Below are positions 2-17,899 of a DNA stretch of 32,000 bases, piece by piece. Below the pieces are notes generated by a model that was not told the origin of the DNA, did no database searches, and saw only the letters and a list, made by a program, of their open reading frames with translations. Where the stretch lies: the NCBI RefSeq assembly GCF_000981785.2, contig NZ_CP011304.1, positions 4,140,001 through 4,172,000 of the forward strand. The letters are read 5' to 3'. Position 1 is the first letter of the stretch. Each line of letters starts with the position of its first letter. The position numbers and the translations under genes were made by a program. This DNA comes from Microcystis aeruginosa NIES-2549. GTDB taxonomy: Bacteria; Cyanobacteriota; Cyanobacteriia; Cyanobacteriales; Microcystaceae.

Positions 2-322
2 AAACACCGTCTTTCTGCCGGAGAAAAACAACTATTAGCGATCGCTTTTTTGTGGGGATTAGCGCGAGTTTCCGGACGAGATTTACCCATCGCTATCGAT
101 ACACCCCTGGGACGTTTAGATTCTTCCCATCGCCATAATTTAGTTGAACGTTATTTTCCCGCTGCTTCCTCTCAAGTTATCCTCCTTTCCACCGATACAG
201 AAATTGGACAAAATGAGCTACTCTTATTAGAAGAACAGGAAGTAATCGCCCGAAAATACCTGCTAGAATACAATTCCCAGCAACGTCAAACCACTATTCA
301 CCCAGACCGTTACTTTTGGTAA
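2..322 (+). CDS. dndD: DndD (DNA phosphorothioation SMC-like ATPase), C-terminal end; the 5' part lies outside the window
   Basis: The frame is open from the window edge: KHRLSAGEKQLLAIAFLWGLARVSGRDLPIAIDTPLGRLDSSHRHNLVERYFPAASSQVILLSTDTEI. It carries an ABC signature (LSAGEKQ) and a Walker B/D-loop (IAIDTPLGRLD) in the arrangement typical of DndD, and a DndE-like gene follows. Confidence 0.8.
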   Translation, partial: KHRLSAGEKQLLAIAFLWGLARVSGRDLPIAIDTPLGRLDSSHRHNLVERYFPAASSQVILLSTDTEIGQNELLLLEEQEVIARKYLLEYNSQQRQTTIHPDRYFW

Positions 323-789: not shown

Positions 790-1188
790 ATGGAATCACC
801 GATCGAACGTTTTAGACTATCCCAAACCGCCAAAGATAGCCTAATAAAATTAAAACGCTACACCAAAATTGACCAATGGAATATCCTTTGTCGTTGGGCT
901 TTTTGTCGTTCCCTTGCCGAACCGAGTCTCCCCTCTCCCGTTCCCATTCCTGCCGATAGCAATGTAGAATTATCTTGGAAAGTATTCGGGGGAGAAATGG
1001 CCGATATTTTCTTAATTGCCCTCAAACAACGTTGTCATCAAGACGGATTAGGAACCGATAAAGAAACCCTAACTCAACAATTTCGCTTACACTTACATCG
1101 CGGTATCGGTTATCTTGCTGGGGATACCAAGCTAAAAAAAATCGATAATTTAATCGAATTAGAGAGAGAAAATCTCAGAGAATCTTAA
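790..1188 (+). CDS. dndE: DndE (DNA sulfur modification protein)
   Basis: A 132 aa protein immediately downstream of dndD. The N-terminal FRLSQTAKDSLIKLKRYTKIDQWNILCRWAFCRSL matches my recollection of the DndE fold signature (RxS..a...L..LK..T.i...NiLcR.A...SL). Size and synteny both fit. Confidence 0.75.
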   Translation: MESPIERFRLSQTAKDSLIKLKRYTKIDQWNILCRWAFCRSLAEPSLPSPVPIPADSNVELSWKVFGGEMADIFLIALKQRCHQDGLGTDKETLTQQFRLHLHRGIGYLAGDTKLKKIDNLIELERENLRES

Positions 1189-5419: not shown

Positions 5420-5600
5420 TTGACATCCTCACCGCCGTAAACGGACGGTGATTCCCAAACCTCACGATTTAGGTTTCTGCTTCTGTCCCGAAGGATTTTT
5501 CGCACCTGCCTTAACAGATTTACTCTGTTCTGGTCTTATGGTCGCTCTACAGACTGACACCGCAAGCCCTGCGGCCAAAATGTTTTTACTGGCGTTAACA
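5420..5600 (-). ncRNA. Putative omega-RNA (reRNA) scaffold of copy 1 (bounds approximate)
   Basis: In characterised TnpB elements the guide RNA spans the tnpB 3' end and the IS right end. Here the right end holds a conserved hairpin (5430-5450) that shows a compensatory change between the two copies. The bounds are not determined. Confidence 0.35.
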
Positions 5601-6649
5601 TCTCGGTCATGGTGAGTCCCACAGTCTGGACAGTCCCACTCTCGAACATTTAACGGCATTTTCTCAGCAATATACCCACAATTACTACACCTTTTAGAGC
5701 TAGAAAACCATCTATCTATTTCGATGTAATTTCTGCCGTACCAACGGCATTTATAGGCTAATTGTCGGGTGATTTCTCCCCAGCTTACATCAGATATTGC
5801 CTGAGATAACTTGGGGTTTTTGACCATATTCTTGACGGCTAAATTCTCAACTACAATCGTTTGGTTTTCACGAACTAATTGAGTGGTTAGCTTATGTAAA
5901 TGGTCTTGTCTGTTATCAGTAGTTTGGGCGTGAATCTTGGCTACTTTGATTCTCGCTTTTTCCCGATTTTTTGAGCCTTTCTGTTTTCTAGAAAGGCTTT
6001 TTTGTGCCTTTTGCAGTCTCCGATAATGCTTTTTAAAATGCTTGTGATTAGATACTTTATCGCCATTGCTGGTAATCACAAGGCTACTAATTCCTAAGTC
6101 AATTCCAATGGCTTTATCTGTTACTGGTAATGGCTTAATTGTTGGGTCATCAAATCTAATTGAGATATGCCAACGTCCAGAAGGATGTAATCTGACTGTT
6201 ACTGTGCTTGGTTCACAGCTTTCTGGGATTTGTCTTGACCATCGAATAGGTAAAGGTTCTGTGCATTTAGCTAAATAGATTTGTCTGTCTTTAAATTTAA
6301 AAGCAGATTTGGTAAATTCGGCACTTGCTCCTTGATGTTTTTTCTTAAAGTTAGGATACTTAGTACGACCAGCAAAGAAATTAGTAAAAGCTGTTTGTAA
6401 ATGTCTTAACCCTTGTTGTAAGGGTAAACAGCTTACTTCATTGAGAAAGTTTAATTCTTCTTGTTTTTTCCACTCGGTCAACATTGAAGAAGTTTCAGTA
6501 TATCCTACTCTTTCTTGTCTTTCGTACCATGCTTGTGTTCTGACATGGAGAGCTTTATTGTAAACCAATCTTACACAGCCCAAAGTGCGCCGCAATAGCG
6601 ACTCTTGTTCCGGTGTGGGGTAAAATCGAAACGAATAGGCTTTTTCCAT
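5462..6649 (-). CDS. tnpB: RNA-guided endonuclease TnpB (IS605 OrfB family)
   Basis: A 395 aa protein with MEKAYSFRFYPTPEQ at the N-terminus. RuvC motifs are IGIDLG, VVENL and DRDVNASKNI, with a zinc finger CSNCG...CPDCG. Confidence 0.9.
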   Translation of the reverse strand: MEKAYSFRFYPTPEQESLLRRTLGCVRLVYNKALHVRTQAWYERQERVGYTETSSMLTEWKKQEELNFLNEVSCLPLQQGLRHLQTAFTNFFAGRTKYPNFKKKHQGASAEFTKSAFKFKDRQIYLAKCTEPLPIRWSRQIPESCEPSTVTVRLHPSGRWHISIRFDDPTIKPLPVTDKAIGIDLGISSLVITSNGDKVSNHKHFKKHYRRLQKAQKSLSRKQKGSKNREKARIKVAKIHAQTTDNRQDHLHKLTTQLVRENQTIVVENLAVKNMVKNPKLSQAISDVSWGEITRQLAYKCRWYGRNYIEIDRWFSSSKRCSNCGYIAEKMPLNVREWDCPDCGTHHDRDVNASKNILAAGLAVSVCRATIRPEQSKSVKAGAKNPSGQKQKPKS

Positions 6650-6741
6650 ACCTCACATTTTAGCATATATTTCGTAAACGATGCTCATATTTAACAGTAA
6701 AGCCGCCGTAAAACGGCGGGGTTTCAGACCCAAAATTTTCG

Positions 6742-7280
6742 ATGAGCAACGATTATCAGCGTCAAGTGATTGATTTTTATGCCCGTCGTCACGATTACGA
6801 TAACGATTTTACGCAAGCTCGCGCCCTTAAATTAGTAAATTATCTCTATTTACAAAAAAGCCAATCTGTGCTAGACGTGGCAACGGGAACGGGATTTATA
6901 GCGGTCGCAATTGCCCCAAAAGTAAAAAGTGTCATCGGGGTTGATTTCACGCCGGAAATGATTGCCAGAGCCGAAAAAAAGCTAGAAGCATTAAATATCG
7001 AGAATATTGACCTAATTAACGCCGATATAGCTGCCATTGACTTTGCCGAGTCTAGTTTCGATCTGATTACCTGTTCTCTGGCGATTGCACTTTTCCCCGA
7101 TATCCCGCAAGTGCTGGCAAAATGGTATCAATGGTTAAAAAAAGGCGGTTCGATCGCCTATCGGCTGCCGAAATTGCGACTCTAGTGAACAATTATCGCC
7201 GAGAAATCGAGAAAAATGCCACCGATCAGGGGGTATGGCAAGATGCAACCACTTTTTTTGTCACTGCTAGTAAAAGTTAG
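6742..7280 (+). pseudogene. Class I SAM-dependent methyltransferase, disrupted by a frameshift or internal deletion
   Basis: Frame 1 gives the SAM motif VLDVATGTGFIA...LKKGGSIA, then stops at 7183-7185. A second frame, open from 7041 to 7280, encodes a plausible C-terminus AAEIATLVNNYRREIEKNATDQGVWQDATTFFVTASKS. The distance from the GG motif to the end is too short for the fold. Confidence 0.55.
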
Positions 7281-7981: not shown

Positions 7982-8158
7982 ATGACTCATCCTGATAATA
8001 ATCTCCAAAATATCCAAGAACCGATTTTAAACGCTCCCGAAGATGTGCGAAAAATCATTGATCGAGTTTTAAAATTGGAAAGAGATAAGTTATACCAGCG
8101 CAATCCTCGCAATATCAATGATGATGTTTTAACGATTATTAAAGAAGTCATTCAATAA
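7982..8158 (+). CDS. Hypothetical 58 aa protein (not in the supplied ORF track)
   Basis: ATG 7982 to TAA 8156-8158: MTHPDNNLQNIQEPILNAPEDVRKIIDRVLKLERDKLYQRNPRNINDDVLTIIKEVIQ. Same strand as the ATPase gene and 72 nt upstream of it. The charged, helical-looking composition suggests a real small protein rather than a random ORF, but this is unverified. Confidence 0.45.
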   Translation: MTHPDNNLQNIQEPILNAPEDVRKIIDRVLKLERDKLYQRNPRNINDDVLTIIKEVIQ

Positions 8159-8206
8159 TCAGTTATCAGTTATCGGTTCACTGTTTACTGTTCACTGAAA
8201 AAACTT
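8159..8206. repeat. CAGTTAT/GTTCACTG motif block upstream of the ATPase gene (related to 665-705)
   Basis: tcagttatcagttatcggttcactgtttactgttcactgaaaaaactt. Confidence 0.6.
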
Positions 8207-8230
8207 ACCCATCATCCCCTCTATATAAAT

Positions 8231-10303
8231 ATGAAACTACTATCAATAAAGTTATGTAATTTTCGACAATTTTATGGTAAGACTCCTGAGATACATTTAG
8301 CGGCGAGTTCTCGCAATACAACGGTAATTTATGGCAATAATGGGGCGGGAAAAACAACAATTTTAAATGCTTGTACTTGGGTACTGTATGAAAAATTTAC
8401 AGCAGCTTTTGCCGAACCAGAGTTATTAGTTAATAAACGGGCAATTACCGAAGTAACCACGGGAACTTCCATAGAATGTTCGGCAGAAGTAAACTTTGAA
8501 CATGAAAATAAACGCTATCAGGTAAAACGAAAATTTTTCGCCTACCAAGATGTAAATAGTAAAATTAAATACGGTTCAAATAGTTTATATATGCTCTACG
8601 CTGGTGATGATGGTAATTGGTACACACCCAATCAACCACCAGAGGATATTATTAATCAAATTTTACCCGAAAGTTTACACCGTTATTTCTTTTTTGATGG
8701 CGAATATATCGATCATCAATTTCGTAGTAGTAGCCAAGGTAAAATCGCCGAAGATACAAAGGAATTATTGGGAGTTAAAGTATTAGATCGAGCGATCGAG
8801 CATTTAAAAAAAGCTAAAAAATCTTTACAAGAGGATCTTAAAGATTTAGGGGAATCGGATTTAAAAAAGTTATTGAAACAGGAAAGTAAAATTGAGCAGG
8901 ATTTCGAGAAATTAAAACAGCGTCAGCAGGATATTATTAACCAGTTATCCCAGCAGGAAGAATTAAAAAAAGCCGTGACTAATCGCTTACTAGAGTTAAG
9001 TGGTGCCGAGGAATTAAAACAGTTAAAAGAAAAATTAGAACAACAGGAAAGAAATCTGCGGCAAGATTTAGTCAGAACTAAGGATAAGTTAAAGAAATTA
9101 ATTTCTCAGCAAGCTTATCAAGTCTTTTTAAAAGGAATTAATCAAAATTTTCAGCAATTAATCGATCGCCTACGACAACAAGGGGAATTACCCAGTGGTA
9201 TCAAACAGCAATTTGTCCAACAATTATTAGAGCGGAAAAAATGTATTTGTGGCCAGGAATTACAGGAAAATAGCCAAGCTTATTTAGAGGTACAAGACTG
9301 GATGAATAAAGCAGGAATGGCCGATGTGGAAGAAGCGGCCATTCGCTTATCTTCCACAGTCAAAGAAATGGATCAACGGGTCTTAGATTTTTGGCAAGAA
9401 GTCGATAATTATCAAGCTAATATTCACCAGTGGCGCTTAGAATTATCTTTGGTAGAATCAGAATTAGATGAAGTGCGGGATAAATTTCGCCATTATCCCG
9501 ATGAAGATATTAAAAATCTGCAATCTCGTTTAGATGCGTTCGAGGATTCTCTAAAAGATTTACGCTTGGAACAGGGTAGCAATAAAAATCAACTAGATAT
9601 TTATGAAAAAGAGTTAGAATCCCTGCAAAAACAGGTACATAAACAGCAACAAAAAGAGGAAAAATATAATTTAGGACAACGACGTATTTTAGCGACTCAA
9701 GAGGCAATTAATCGCATTAGTGAGGTAAGACAGAGATTAGAAAATCAGTTTCGTTTGTCCTTAGAAAAACGGGTACAGGAAATCTTTAGCTCAATTTCTT
9801 TTACTCCCTATATTCCCCGTATTAGTCCCGATTACGAGGTAAGATTATTAGAAAATACCACAGGATTTGCCATTCCCGTGGCAGCTTCTACCGGAGAAAA
9901 TCAGATTCTTAGTTTATCTTTTATCGGGGGAATTATCGATCGAGTGCGAGAATGGAGTCAGAAAAATACTTTGATGGGAATTGATAGCAGCACTTTTCCT
10001 CTGGTGATGGATTCCCCTTTTGGTAGTCTTGATCATATCTATCGTCGGCAAGTTGCGATCGCTATTCCTAAATTAGCCAATCAGTTAGTTGTTTTAGTGA
10101 CAAAAACTCAATGGAGAGGAGAAGTAGAAACCGAGATTTCTCCCTATATTGGTAAAGAATATGTGTTAGTTTATAATTCTCCGAAAGCAGATTGTCAAGA
10201 GGATTTAATTAATCTTCATGGTGTTAATTATTCTCTGGTGAAACGCAGTCCTAATAATTTTGAATATACGGAAATTATCGAAGTTAATCGATTTTCCTCC
10301 TGA
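8231..10303 (+). CDS. DndD-like SMC/Rad50-fold ABC ATPase with a long central coiled coil (orphan; function unknown)
   Basis: Walker A GNNGAGKTT (aa 35-43). A K/E/Q/L-rich coiled coil spans about aa 180-520, with CICG at aa 338-341. The C-terminal STGENQILSLSFIGGI...FPLVMDSPFGSLD...LVVLVTKTQ aligns with the DndD tail at 2-322. Confidence 0.85.
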   Translation: MKLLSIKLCNFRQFYGKTPEIHLAASSRNTTVIYGNNGAGKTTILNACTWVLYEKFTAAFAEPELLVNKRAITEVTTGTSIECSAEVNFEHENKRYQVKRKFFAYQDVNSKIKYGSNSLYMLYAGDDGNWYTPNQPPEDIINQILPESLHRYFFFDGEYIDHQFRSSSQGKIAEDTKELLGVKVLDRAIEHLKKAKKSLQEDLKDLGESDLKKLLKQESKIEQDFEKLKQRQQDIINQLSQQEELKKAVTNRLLELSGAEELKQLKEKLEQQERNLRQDLVRTKDKLKKLISQQAYQVFLKGINQNFQQLIDRLRQQGELPSGIKQQFVQQLLERKKCICGQELQENSQAYLEVQDWMNKAGMADVEEAAIRLSSTVKEMDQRVLDFWQEVDNYQANIHQWRLELSLVESELDEVRDKFRHYPDEDIKNLQSRLDAFEDSLKDLRLEQGSNKNQLDIYEKELESLQKQVHKQQQKEEKYNLGQRRILATQEAINRISEVRQRLENQFRLSLEKRVQEIFSSISFTPYIPRISPDYEVRLLENTTGFAIPVAASTGENQILSLSFIGGIIDRVREWSQKNTLMGIDSSTFPLVMDSPFGSLDHIYRRQVAIAIPKLANQLVVLVTKTQWRGEVETEISPYIGKEYVLVYNSPKADCQEDLINLHGVNYSLVKRSPNNFEYTEIIEVNRFSS

Positions 10304-10332
10304 CTACTAAATTCTGTTGTTATAACTAAATT

Positions 10333-12570
10333 TTAACTCCTAATAAAACGATCAATTGCTGTATTCATTGTCCCAACACGACGGGATAATTCCACAAGTT
10401 CCGTGGTGACAATATTATAATCTCCTAAATATTTATGGAGATTAGTTCCTTCTTTTTGATGGGCAATTTCTACTAATCTTTCCTCTCGCAATTCTTGCAA
10501 ATGATCGAGGACTTCTTCTAAAGTATCTTCGAGGGGAGGTAAGGGAAGAGGAGGATTATTTGTTTGCAAAGCTTCGGTTAATTGCGTCAAAGCTTGGGTT
10601 ATTTGTTGCGTGAACAGACTTAGATTAGGATGGGGAGGACTACCGCGATATTGTTCCAATTCCGTCAATAAAACTGTCACCCCGCGACCAAAACGAGGAA
10701 TATAATTACTTAAAGTGATTGCCGGTTCCATTTGTGGAAAGGGTGTGCTAGGATCGTCAATTAATCGTTGTAAGGCCGTTTGCATAGTTGTATTTGCTCG
10801 TCGAGCTTTATTGCGATGGGAAGATAAAATTGCAGTTTGATAGGATGATTCTCCTAAATAAACTGCCATAACTGACTGAAAAAATACTTGATTAGCTTCT
10901 AATGCTTTAATGGCAGCGAGGGAAAAACGTTCATCTTCATTAAACCTTAAAAAACCGAAGGAAAGTACAAAGGCTAAAGCACTACCGATTAAAGTGTAAA
11001 CTATTCTGATATACTCTAAATTAATGCCGTCATTGCTGGCATCCAGACGACTGATGATTAAAGCAAAAATTGTGATAAAAAATACGGCCAAACTATAGTG
11101 AAATCGCACCAAAGCTAAAGCGATCGCTATAGAAATTACACCAATAATTTCTAACCAGATCGGATTATCGATAATTGGCAACAGTGCCAAAACAAAAAAC
11201 GAGCCTAAAATCGTGCCAAACACCCGATTAAAAAAGCGTTGAAAAGTCAGGCTAAAATCTGGTTTTAACACAATAACTAAGGTTAAACCAATCCAAAAAC
11301 TATGGGTAATTCCTAGCTTATTGTAGATCAACACTCCTAGGGCACTTCCCAAACCCAAGCGTAAACCATGGCGAAATAGGGGCGATTCTAGATTAAAATT
11401 AGATTTTAAGGGTTCCCACCAAGCTTTTTCTTGACTGTACTCTTGTTCTATCCCTTCAAAGTTCCGCTGCCAGGGATTTTTTTTATCGGAAAAGTCCTCG
11501 CTTTGCCGCAAATGTTGCGCTGTTTCACTGGCTATTTTTAGCTGTTTAGATAATTTTTTTAAACGATTATTTAATTGCGAAATTGCCACATAACTGCTAT
11601 AATCATCCTGGGCATTTTCTAAAACTTTGGCTTGCAGGTTTTTTTGTTGCTCGATCGCCTTGAGTAATAGCTGCAAACGCTCACAATCCGGTCGTTTATT
11701 TCTCCCCAAAATTAACCAGGCAATATCTTCGCTAATTTCCGCCACTTGCACGAGAATATCTTCTAATAAAATAGCCACCGTGGTCAGTTGTGGCAAGGGA
11801 TGAAGATGAAGCAATTCTCGCAGCGCGATTAAGCTGGTATTAATGCGATCGCTATCTTCGATCAAGACGATTAACAATTCCCGCAGCTCACTCTTTCCCC
11901 AACGTCCCCGACGCGTTAAGGTGACAGTTTTCCTAGAACGGAGCAACAGTTGCCGGATTTTGTTAAAAGATGGCTCCTCATTAGCATTAGAACGAGAGTG
12001 TAAAGGCAAAGAGCGGAGATAGGTGGCGATACCATGAAAATTTTCCGCCGTTACCTGACGTAAAGGCTGATTAGGACGAAAAGGCCAGATAAACAGGGCC
12101 AAAAAAATTGTCCATCCCCCCCCCAACACAACGATTCCGGCCCGTTGTAAAGCGACGATAATATCCCCCGATGGCAAAGAAACAGCAAAAAGCAGCAATA
12201 AACTGATTACTACCCCAGCTAACGCCCCATTTTCCCCGTAAACCGTCAAATAACCCGCTAGAAACAACCCACAAAAAACTATCACTACGGTCAATCCTAG
12301 CCAAGCACTGGCTAATGTACCGATAATCAAAGCTAGAGCCATCCCGATAGTCGTAGCGACCAGGGTTTTCGCTCTCAGGCAGTAAAGTCCCCCTGCATCG
12401 GCTAAAATCAAGATTTGAGCCGCTAAACCGACCATTAACCCCAATTTTGACTGATTTAAAATATCACCGACAATAATCGGTACTGCGATCGCTAATAAAG
12501 TCCGAATCCCCCGCTCGATCTCAATATCGCCACTAGGACGCAATAAAAAAGCAAATCGCTGAAGTAGCAT
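10333..12570 (-). CDS. FUSC-family (YccS/fusaric-acid-resistance-like) integral membrane protein
   Basis: A 745 aa protein with two multi-TM blocks separated by a large soluble helical region, the typical FUSC architecture. Confidence 0.65.
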   Translation of the reverse strand: MLLQRFAFLLRPSGDIEIERGIRTLLAIAVPIIVGDILNQSKLGLMVGLAAQILILADAGGLYCLRAKTLVATTIGMALALIIGTLASAWLGLTVVIVFCGLFLAGYLTVYGENGALAGVVISLLLLFAVSLPSGDIIVALQRAGIVVLGGGWTIFLALFIWPFRPNQPLRQVTAENFHGIATYLRSLPLHSRSNANEEPSFNKIRQLLLRSRKTVTLTRRGRWGKSELRELLIVLIEDSDRINTSLIALRELLHLHPLPQLTTVAILLEDILVQVAEISEDIAWLILGRNKRPDCERLQLLLKAIEQQKNLQAKVLENAQDDYSSYVAISQLNNRLKKLSKQLKIASETAQHLRQSEDFSDKKNPWQRNFEGIEQEYSQEKAWWEPLKSNFNLESPLFRHGLRLGLGSALGVLIYNKLGITHSFWIGLTLVIVLKPDFSLTFQRFFNRVFGTILGSFFVLALLPIIDNPIWLEIIGVISIAIALALVRFHYSLAVFFITIFALIISRLDASNDGINLEYIRIVYTLIGSALAFVLSFGFLRFNEDERFSLAAIKALEANQVFFQSVMAVYLGESSYQTAILSSHRNKARRANTTMQTALQRLIDDPSTPFPQMEPAITLSNYIPRFGRGVTVLLTELEQYRGSPPHPNLSLFTQQITQALTQLTEALQTNNPPLPLPPLEDTLEEVLDHLQELREERLVEIAHQKEGTNLHKYLGDYNIVTTELVELSRRVGTMNTAIDRFIRS

Positions 12571-15169: not shown

Positions 15170-15991
15170 CTAAACTTCATCCGGATTGATCCCCAGCGCT
15201 CTTAGTCTTTCCGCTAGTCGTTGGGCTTTTTGTTCCGCTTCCTGTTTGGCTAAACTTTCTTGCTGGGCATTCAAACGTTCTTGCTGGGCGATCAAACTTG
15301 CTTGCTCGGCCATTGCCGCTGCTGCCCTCGCCCTTTCCTCTGCCGTTAAATAGCGATTTCCCGATCGATCATACCAATACAGCCATTCTCGCACCCAAGC
15401 GATATGTTCTCCCTGCTCATATCCCAAGGCTAACCCGATTTCTGGCAACCATACCCGATTATTTTCAGGCTCTAAAAGCTCGTATTTCCCCGCTATCAGC
15501 TTATAAACCTCTAATCTCTCTCTATTTTTAAACCTTCCCCTTCTACCGCTCAAGGGATTATAAATTGCATAGTAGAGAACGCCTAGGGTTTGATAATCCG
15601 CTAACTTTCCCTCATATTCCCCGTTATATTTCTCGGAAATCACTTCCAGGGCCAATATCGGCATAATATAAGCTTCTTCCCAGAGAACATAGCTTAATCT
15701 TCCCCTTTCTCCGGTATCGTGTTTGACTCCAATGGCTAAAAATCCATCCGGTATGATTGCCGGTTCGTCGGGATTGTAATAAACTCCCATATCGACACCA
15801 AAATACCAATCATCCCGCTCCGCCCAAATAAATGCTAGTAAACTGAGTAATAGATTGGGAATATCGTTCTGTAACTGGTTATCCACGGCTGTTTCGTCAG
15901 AACAGGGTAATTCTTCGGCACTGGGAAGAAGGCGATTTTTATTGTAGGAAAGGTTAACCATAGCGATTGTTTTGACTAGGGAAATTACCAA
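15170..15991 (-). CDS. Uma2-family (DUF820) restriction-endonuclease-like protein with a C-terminal coiled-coil tail
   Basis: LPSAEELPCSDETAVDNQLQN...PDGFLAIGV...RLSYVLWEE...PILALEVISEK...YQTLGVLYYAIYNP is the typical cyanobacterial Uma2 pattern. An alternative start at 15961 (MVNLSY) is possible. Confidence 0.8.
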   Translation of the reverse strand: MVISLVKTIAMVNLSYNKNRLLPSAEELPCSDETAVDNQLQNDIPNLLLSLLAFIWAERDDWYFGVDMGVYYNPDEPAIIPDGFLAIGVKHDTGERGRLSYVLWEEAYIMPILALEVISEKYNGEYEGKLADYQTLGVLYYAIYNPLSGRRGRFKNRERLEVYKLIAGKYELLEPENNRVWLPEIGLALGYEQGEHIAWVREWLYWYDRSGNRYLTAEERARAAAAMAEQASLIAQQERLNAQQESLAKQEAEQKAQRLAERLRALGINPDEV

Positions 15992-16786: not shown

Positions 16787-17899
16787 ATGGAAAAAGCCTA
16801 TTCTTACCGATTTTACCCAACACCCGAACAAGAGTCGCTATTGCGGCGCACTTTGGGCTGTGTAAGATTGGTTTACAATAAAGCTCTCCATCTCAGAACA
16901 CAAGCTTGGCATGAAAGACAAGAAAGATTAGGATATGCTGAAACTTCTTCAATGCTAACCGAGTGGAAAAAACAAGAAGAATTAAACTTTCTCAATGAAG
17001 TAAGCTGTTTACCCTTACAACAAGGGTTAAGACATTTACAAACAGCTTTTACTAATTTCTTTGCTGGTCGTACTAAGTATCCTAACTTTAAGAAAAAACA
17101 TCAAGGAGCAAGTGCCGAATTTACCAAATCTGCTTTTAAATTTAAAGACAGACAAATCTATTTAGCTAAATGCACAGAACCTTTACCTATTCGATGGTCA
17201 AGACAAATCCCAGAAAGCTGTGAACCAAGCACAGTAACAGTCAGATTACATCCTTCTGGACGTTGGCATATCTCAATTAGATTTGATGACCCAACAATTA
17301 AGCCATTACCAGTAACAGATAAAGCCATTGGAATTGACTTAGGAATTAGTAGCCTTGTGATTACCAGCAATGGCGATAAAGTATCTAATCACAAGCATTT
17401 TAAAAAGCATTATCGGAGACTGCAAAAGGCACAAAAAAGCCTTTCTAGAAAACAGAAAGGCTCAAAAAATCGGGAAAAGGCAAAAATCAAAGTAGCCAGG
17501 ATTCACGCCCAAATTACTGATAACAGAAAAGACCATTTACATAAGCTAACGACTCAATTAGTTCGTGAAAACCAAACGATTGTGGTTGAGAATTTAGCCG
17601 TCAAGAATATGGTCAAAAACCCGAAATTATCTCAGGCAATATCTGATGTAAGCTGGGGAGAAATAACCCGACAATTAGCCTATAAATGCCGTTGGTACGG
17701 CAGAAATTACATCGAAATAGATAGATGGTTTCCTAGCTCTAAAAGGTGTAGTAATTGCGGGTATATTGCTGAGAAAATGCCGTTAAATATTCGAGAGTGG
17801 GATTGTCCAGACTGTGGGACTCACCATGACCGAGATATTAACGCCAGTAAAAACATTTTGGCCGCAGGGCTTGCGGTGTCAGTCTGTAGAGCGACCTGA
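16787..17899 (+). CDS. tnpB: TnpB, copy 2; the C-terminal tail is truncated by a premature TGA
   Basis: 370 aa, with 12 substitutions relative to copy 1. RuvC and Zn-finger motifs are intact (IGIDLG, VVENL, CSNCG..CPDCG, DRDINASKNI). acc-TGA-tga at 17897 replaces acc-ata-aga in copy 1, removing 25 non-catalytic residues. Confidence 0.85.
   Translation: MEKAYSYRFYPTPEQESLLRRTLGCVRLVYNKALHLRTQAWHERQERLGYAETSSMLTEWKKQEELNFLNEVSCLPLQQGLRHLQTAFTNFFAGRTKYPNFKKKHQGASAEFTKSAFKFKDRQIYLAKCTEPLPIRWSRQIPESCEPSTVTVRLHPSGRWHISIRFDDPTIKPLPVTDKAIGIDLGISSLVITSNGDKVSNHKHFKKHYRRLQKAQKSLSRKQKGSKNREKAKIKVARIHAQITDNRKDHLHKLTTQLVRENQTIVVENLAVKNMVKNPKLSQAISDVSWGEITRQLAYKCRWYGRNYIEIDRWFPSSKRCSNCGYIAEKMPLNIREWDCPDCGTHHDRDINASKNILAAGLAVSVCRAT

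Follow-up and report, generated by a model that had tools for sequence, protein, structure and literature searches.

What kind of system is encoded by the two genes that lie between leuD and a convergent FUSC membrane gene in the cyanobacterium Microcystis aeruginosa NIES-2549? The locus was analysed within a 32,000-nucleotide (nt) stretch of contig NZ_CP011304.1 (positions 4,140,001 to 4,172,000 of the forward strand), referred to here as the window. It comprises a 58-amino acid (aa) open reading frame (ORF) and, 72 nt further downstream on the same strand, a 690-aa coiled-coil ATPase gene (positions 7982-8158 and 8231-10303; Table 1). An original prediction, derived from the letters of the window, proposed that these genes form an uncharacterised two-gene module around an orphan ATPase paralogous to DndD. 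Its description of the locus was confirmed: the two ORFs and the gap between them, the Walker A site, the C-I-C-G motif at aa 338-341, the alignment of the C-terminal block with a DndD tail, the HIP1 site at position 10055, and the flanking genes, leuD upstream on the same strand and FUSC downstream, with no helicase, nuclease or DndA/C/E gene adjacent to the pair. The module did not prove to be uncharacterised, since both genes fall into the described Pbe system. We consider it likely that positions 7982-10303 represent the pbeB-pbeC core of a Pbe-type system, that is, one centred on a CxC ABC ATPase, with its helicase partner encoded elsewhere.

In PbeABCD systems, the CxC ABC ATPase is a sister clade of DndD with a CxC-type zinc hook at its apex that is not found in DndD (PMC10853773). 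This ATPase is PbeC, PbeB is a small protein encoded upstream of it, PbeD is a cognate DndE, and the SF2 helicase PbeA in most cases carries a fused HKD nuclease (PMC10853773). With Haloterrigena jeotgali genes in Natrinema, pbeB and pbeC were each indispensable for phosphorothioate-dependent protection against the virus SNJ1, whose DNA was neither cut nor degraded while its replication was blocked; the haloarchaeal system tested is helicase-only and antiviral (PMC6459918).

The window ATPase matches the PADLOC PbeC model PDLC02753 over its entire length (positions 1-648 of 648) with 999.5 bits (E 1.5e-301), compared to 147.8 bits with the best PADLOC DndD model. Against the NCBIfam DndD equivalog TIGR03185 it scores 140 bits, under the cutoff of 245.85, confirming the earlier view that it is a paralogue of DndD and not DndD itself, and against the NCBIfam SbcC and Rad50 models it reaches 44.6 and 44 bits, far under cutoffs of 478.5 and 700 (cutoffs of the Rad50/SbcC models range from 478 to 1000). 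Matches to the Pfam families AAA_23, SMC_N and AAA_29 were also found. The ABC-head motifs are split by a coiled-coil insert, and all of them, together with C-I-C-G, are invariant in the 20 cyanobacterial ATPase sequences across which invariance was judged. Relatives from Pseudanabaena, Pontibrevibacter and Natrinema also have CIC in the corresponding position; it occurs in proteobacterial and haloarchaeal relatives, while the Microcystis DndD is without it. No CxxC is present in the ATPase sequence. The original prediction had regarded the CxC spacing as only suggestive of a Rad50 hook; the motif is indeed meaningful, but as the defining motif of the clade to which this ATPase belongs rather than as a weak resemblance to Rad50.

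An AlphaFold2 model built from 20 homologues (mean predicted local distance difference test score, pLDDT, 64.5), in which the coiled coil is well predicted and the heads poorly, places helical arms of about 290 residues in total on either side of a non-helical apex that carries the CxC. The best Foldseek matches of this model are Rad50, JetC, MukB and LmuB, and a sequence search of the PDB with the ATPase profile gave no match at E <= 0.001. Like Rad50 and SbcC, the protein is a coiled-coil ABC ATPase with an apical cysteine motif, and its best PDB structural matches are Rad50 chains; it differs from them in having CxC in place of CxxC, a much shorter coiled coil and no Mre11/SbcD partner. With DndD it shares the split ABC head and coiled coil, an alignable signature, Walker B and D-loop, and a Ser/Thr-Pro following the Walker B aspartate; its C-terminal block (STGENQILSL...FPLVMDSPFGSLD) can be aligned with the DndD tail encoded at window positions 2-319. 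However, the window ATPase is only 19.6% identical to Microcystis DndD, DndD contains no CxC, and the ATPase gene is adjacent to neither dndE nor dndC, its neighbours being leuD and FUSC. By these scores and motifs, the ATPase is the PbeC of the known Pbe, or CxC-ABC-ATPase, system. The GenBank label of its record, AKE66508.1 ('Exonuclease SbcC' / AAA family ATPase), is a misnomer.

The protein encoded by the small gene is predicted to be helical, with the conserved core VQEPIxxAPxEVRxIIxRVLxLEKDKLYxxxPRNINDDILxIIKEVIQ, and matched no Pfam, NCBIfam or PADLOC family. It had been described as absent from the ORF track, where it was indeed missed by a 60-aa cutoff, but it is an annotated GenBank gene (AKE66507.1, 'hypothetical protein') that is called in other Microcystis records too. 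Correct names can thus be given to two Microcystis genes now labelled as an exonuclease SbcC / AAA family ATPase and a hypothetical protein.

At least 580 species-representative genomes encode a relative of the ATPase, and the locus counts given here refer to the best 80 fetched, all of which are cyanobacterial or evidently mis-binned cyanobacterial contigs. A homologue of the small ORF lies directly 5' of the ATPase gene in 79 of these 80 loci, the lone exception having only 100 bases of upstream sequence, which supports the predicted two-gene unit as genuine and shows it to be co-inherited. In 58 of the 79, all of them outside Microcystis, the stop codon of the small ORF overlaps the ATPase start codon within an ATGA sequence (-4), as is typical of translationally coupled genes. 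A profile built from the cyanobacterial small proteins was searched against the 19,578 six-frame ORFs of all loci in the analysis; it found matches in Natrinema (E 1.1e-9), Halorhabdus (3.6e-6) and Arthrobacter (2.6e-5), in each case picking exactly the ORF that abuts the ATPase gene, and the core common to cyanobacterial and distant proteins is VLxxEKxKL...P..INDDI..II.E. Because the profile picks ORFs in the PbeB position at these distant loci, the small ORF is, judged by its similarity to these haloarchaeal and actinobacterial PbeB-position ORFs, a homologue of PbeB. It corresponds to PbeB in its position immediately 5' of pbeC, its size, the ATGA coupling of its relatives and its profile similarity.

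Several variations on this arrangement were seen. In many filamentous cyanobacteria the PbeB ORF encodes a protein of 80-97 aa with a conserved N-terminal extension of 25-40 aa (e.g. ...AEKRSSY...), which may be a lineage-specific extra segment (Oscillatoriales loci L046, L047, L051, L053, L057-L061 and L064-L079). In Microcystis, a spacer has replaced the ancestral 4-nt ATGA overlap, which is 65-279 nt long in the seven loci measured (among L001-L008); since the overlap is gone, translational coupling of pbeB and pbeC may have been lost in this genus. The spacer is likewise enlarged, to 302-368 nt, in Okeania/Dapis loci L069, L071 and L078. At the Okeania sp. SIO3B5 locus (L067, 5785-7062), a 167-nt unit consisting of the last pbeB codons, the ATGA junction, the first ~24 pbeC codons and a run of CTTCTTC heptamers is amplified about 7.8-fold in tandem between pbeB and pbeC. 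Promoter and terminator scans around the window pair returned chance-level results only, and an Rfam scan of the window returned nothing. Two of the loci (L032 and L061), with the pair at 58-63% identity, are filed as metagenome-assembled genomes of 'Candidatus Gracilibacteria' and 'Actinomycetota', which looks like mis-binning.

The remaining components of the system were sought in the relatives. Upstream and on the same strand in 31 of the 80 loci is a gene for an SF2 helicase of 470-500 aa (immediately adjacent in 23, nearby in 8). The cyanobacterial helicase scores 657.8 bits against TIGR04095 ('DNA phosphorothioation system restriction enzyme', cutoff 600) and covers positions 246-681 of the 682-position PADLOC PbeA model; as the match is restricted to these positions, the profiles identify it as PbeA minus the N-terminal HKD nuclease. 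The profile TIGR04062, dnd_assoc_4 ('DNA phosphorothioation-associated protein 4'), which corresponds to PbeD, the DndE cognate, is matched in 18 of the 80 loci, and a DGQHR/DndB-like gene is present in 11. Plasmid loci from six genera (Pseudanabaena, Pontibrevibacter, Natrinema, Halorhabdus, Halobaculum and Lactiplantibacillus) share a single order, namely helicase, small ORF (48-64 aa), ATPase and a gene of ~140-160 aa. TIGR04062 scores this last gene above cutoff in Pontibrevibacter and below cutoff in Natrinema, and on the Pseudanabaena plasmid a gene named dnd_assoc_4 sits further downstream.

No helicase, dnd_assoc_4 or DGQHR/DndB-like gene, adjacent or otherwise, was found in the 32-kb window. 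An earlier helicase search with a Gomphosphaeria query had revealed none in Microcystis; a search seeded with a Gloeothece query led to a cluster of 426 Microcystis sequences. In Microcystis NIES-843 the helicase is solitary, at ~2.087 Mb between a UPF0093/CopD-family gene and nusB, and in Gloeothece verrucosa it shares a chromosome with the pbeB-pbeC pair, at a distance of 555 kb. The pair is not the orphan it was taken for: a PbeA-type helicase is encoded at a separate locus in Microcystis genomes. ORFs of 155-157 aa found beside the solitary Gloeothece and Microcystis helicases were considered as PbeD and ruled out by the dnd_assoc_4 profile.

Set beside the PbeABCD systems described previously (PMC6459918; PMC10853773), the pair has in common with them the CxC apex motif together with the full-length PbeC match, and a small gene of 50-65 aa directly 5' of the ATPase gene and usually overlapping its start; a PbeA-type helicase and the DndE-cognate PbeD (dnd_assoc_4) are also encoded at related cyanobacterial loci, and canonical dndD-dndE genes lie near the window pair. 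It differs in that only pbeB and pbeC are found at the window locus, with no PbeD there, and in that the Microcystis PbeA is encoded elsewhere without the HKD domain typical of most bacterial versions. Inheritance in cyanobacteria also looks vertical and chromosomal rather than island-borne, and cyanobacterial PbeB is well conserved (54-76% identity outside Microcystis, across orders), whereas the literature describes the protein as rapidly evolving and mostly disordered. New relative to these studies (PMC10853773; PMC6459918) are the indication from sequence comparison that PbeB constitutes a recognisable conserved family in cyanobacteria, actinobacteria and haloarchaea, rather than just a rapidly evolving disordered peptide, and the finding that cyanobacteria keep their Pbe genes in dispersed form. 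System rules of PADLOC or DefenseFinder that require adjacency would probably miss such dispersed systems, which is of relevance to cataloguing cyanophage resistance in bloom-forming Microcystis and to the question of how viruses are stopped, with their DNA left uncut, by Pbe systems of the helicase-only kind.

Several points weigh against the assignment of the pair to a Pbe-type system. In the published description of the CxC ATPase family, linkage to a DndE cognate is universal (PMC10853773), and the dnd_assoc_4 profile matched nothing in the window, nor anything in Microcystis loci L084-L087 and L090-L092; apart from the canonical dndE at 790-1188, no DndE-family gene lies within 7 kb of the pair. 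Phosphorothioate-dependent antiviral protection is known only from the Haloterrigena jeotgali genes expressed in Natrinema (PMC6459918). The structural models are of limited confidence: the ATPase heads fall below pLDDT 50, and the small protein was modelled from one sequence only (pLDDT 64.6). Finally, conservation of a vertical appearance in fixed housekeeping neighbourhoods is unusual for a defence system.

This last point bears on how the pair arrived in Microcystis, which the original prediction attributed to horizontal acquisition on account of its AT-richness. The G+C content is indeed 0.34-0.37 over window positions 8000-10500, compared to ~0.44 elsewhere. However, a composition rich in K, E, Q, L and N accounts for about half of the deficit of the ATPase gene (observed 0.357; 0.395 predicted from its amino acids and the codon usage of the window; background ~0.445), and the remainder is family-wide. 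Of 75 cyanobacterial loci, 71 have an ATPase gene richer in AT than the genes around it, and the G+C of this gene at third codon positions (GC3; 0.28 in the window, the lowest value there) tracks the host, with 0.18 in Aphanothece and 0.54 in Pannus. Because low G+C is common to the gene family across hosts, it was ruled out as a sign of transfer. The order leuD-pair-FUSC is kept in 8/8 Microcystis species-level genomes, and a hemC-pair order in several Chroococcales genera. Identity to the Microcystis ATPase declines in step with taxonomic distance: 78% in Pannus, 68-71% in Gloeothece and Aphanothece, 62-65% in Crocosphaera, 57-60% in Oscillatoriales and 51% in Pseudanabaena. This evidence argues against recent transfer of the pair, and its inheritance in cyanobacteria appears vertical.

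The same observations would fit a different outcome, in which a nuclease-less PbeA, PbeB and PbeC were recruited into a housekeeping machine for chromosome maintenance or DNA repair, for example in polyploid genomes. Such recruitment would explain why Pbe genes are conserved despite being scattered. The smooth fall of ATPase identity with taxonomic distance, the breadth of its distribution over at least 580 species-level genomes, the fixed local orders, and an ATPase cluster (490 distinct sequences) of much the same size as the cluster for the adjacent FUSC gene (573) are all consistent with it, as are a helicase that is ~70% identical across orders and has no HKD nuclease domain, and the placing of the genes apart among housekeeping genes, both in Gloeothece verrucosa and in Microcystis. 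On the other hand, Oscillatoriales loci and the Pseudanabaena plasmid still hold the genes in typical defence and Dnd contexts (DGQHR/DndB-like, dnd_assoc_4, MazG-like, Uma2 and CRISPR-Cas I-D genes), and the haloarchaeal relative that has been tested is helicase-only yet antiviral (PMC6459918). We regard it as unlikely that the pair belongs to a machine of this kind. The full scenario, in which a nuclease-less Pbe system has been inherited vertically since the early cyanobacteria, scattered, strongly constrained and domesticated for DNA scanning or chromosome maintenance, is held to be improbable to the same degree; if true, defence finders that rely on islands would overlook pairs of the pbeB-pbeC kind.

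Alternatively, the Microcystis genome being highly rearranged, the pair could be the decaying remnant of a pbeABCD operon that was broken up, perhaps still transcribed but with no function in the absence of an adjacent PbeA and PbeD. Both are absent from the locus, the ATGA coupling has given way to a variable spacer with 7-nt repeats, and Xiong et al. (2019) suggested that pbeAC genes occurring alone might be inactive (PMC6459918). Decay is nevertheless very improbable: the window carries both ORFs intact, they are 94-98% identical in 7-8 Microcystis species-level genomes, all residues invariant across cyanobacteria are retained, the helicase is kept genus-wide in the 426 sequences mentioned above, and the same solitary arrangement recurs in many Chroococcales genera, including Pannus, Aphanothece, Gloeothece and Crocosphaera. 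Least credible of all is the view with which the analysis started, of a novel, horizontally acquired two-gene defence module independent of known systems, for although the small protein belongs to no database family, the pair stands alone at its locus and its GC3 is low, the ATPase is assigned to PbeC and the small ORF to the PbeB position, related cyanobacteria hold a complete four-gene system, the low G+C is family-wide and the gene order is fixed in Microcystis.

For the pbeB-pbeC core of a Pbe-type system, we propose the following model. PbeC is a Rad50-like ABC ATPase in which the head halves are parted by an antiparallel coiled coil of ~300 residues. As expected from its family, a zinc ion bound by the CxC cysteines at the apex would link two protomers, and ATP would drive engagement of the heads on DNA. 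The translational coupling of PbeB to PbeC in most cyanobacteria suggests that PbeB, a small helical protein, may act as a stoichiometric partner or regulator of PbeC. The nuclease-less PbeA helicase would supply translocation; judging from other Microcystis genomes, its encoding at a separate locus would leave the system dispersed across the genome rather than absent. The resulting complex probably scans DNA and keeps unmodified invader DNA from being replicated, without cutting it, as in the helicase-only haloarchaeal system, and modification, the self mark or DNA recognition may be supplied by the DndD-DndE pair 7 kb upstream or by an undetected PbeD.

Table 1. Features of the pbeB-pbeC locus and its surroundings. 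Positions are those of the window; residues (aa) are those of the ATPase.
Feature	Position	Strand	Basis or remarks
pbeB-like small protein gene, 58 aa	7982-8158	+	homologues upstream of ATPase, profile matches
pbeB-pbeC spacer, 72 nt	8159-8230	+	two 7-nt tandem repeat arrays: ATCAGTT x3, GTTCACT x3
pbeC-like CxC-type ABC ATPase gene, 690 aa	8231-10303	+	PADLOC, Pfam, motifs, AlphaFold2 model
Walker A GNNGAGKTT	aa 35-43		N-terminal head half
Coiled-coil arms	aa 182-316, aa 364-521		AlphaFold2 model
Apex motif C338-I-C340-G	aa 338-341		in non-helical segment aa 317-363 between arms
Signature STGENQ	aa 553-558		C-terminal head half
Walker B FPLVMD	aa 589-594		C-terminal head half
D-loop SPFGSLD	aa 595-601		C-terminal head half
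Canonical dndD, 3' end (last 106 codons)	2-319	+	context, outside the pair; PADLOC DndD PDLC02668, E 1.6e-57
Canonical dndE, partner of dndD	790-1188	+	Pfam PF08870 DndE, E 3.7e-45; PADLOC DndE
TnpB element	5462-6649 (TnpB); insertion 5424-6740		strain-specific; not in four other Microcystis records (L084-L087)
Second TnpB	16787-17899		separate copy

At its left edge the window holds Dnd genes that had been described as a phosphorothioate-modification operon 7 kb from the pair. In the four related Microcystis contigs (L084-L087), the cluster consists of DndD (661 aa) and DndE (132 aa) only, with no DndA, DndB or DndC gene adjacent, so that a DndD-DndE pair rather than an operon is present; its upstream neighbour there is a VCPO-like gene or a TPP-enzyme gene. 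Published accounts of dndC linkage in Microcystis disagree (PMC2442094; PMC8546630). Nor is the pair part of a segment bracketed by insertion sequences, as had been suggested: the two TnpB elements are separate, and a composite transposon formed by them around the pair was ruled out, since the upstream copy is missing from strains with the same gene order.

A Uma2-family (DUF820) putative endonuclease gene lies 4.9 kb downstream of the pair (window 15170-15991, minus strand). Genes of this family occur near the pair in 13 loci, the window among them, and directly 5' of pbeB in Gloeothece verrucosa; this recurrence may be due to chance, the family being very abundant in cyanobacteria. On the upstream side, comparison with another Microcystis contig, L084 (window 5424-7280), shows cobU separated from a SAM-methyltransferase gene by insertion of the 1.3-kb TnpB (IS605 OrfB) element, which has subterminal hairpins. 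The methyltransferase gene has suffered an internal deletion of ~247 nt that leaves fragments of 147 aa and 52 aa, making it a pseudogene in the window strain.

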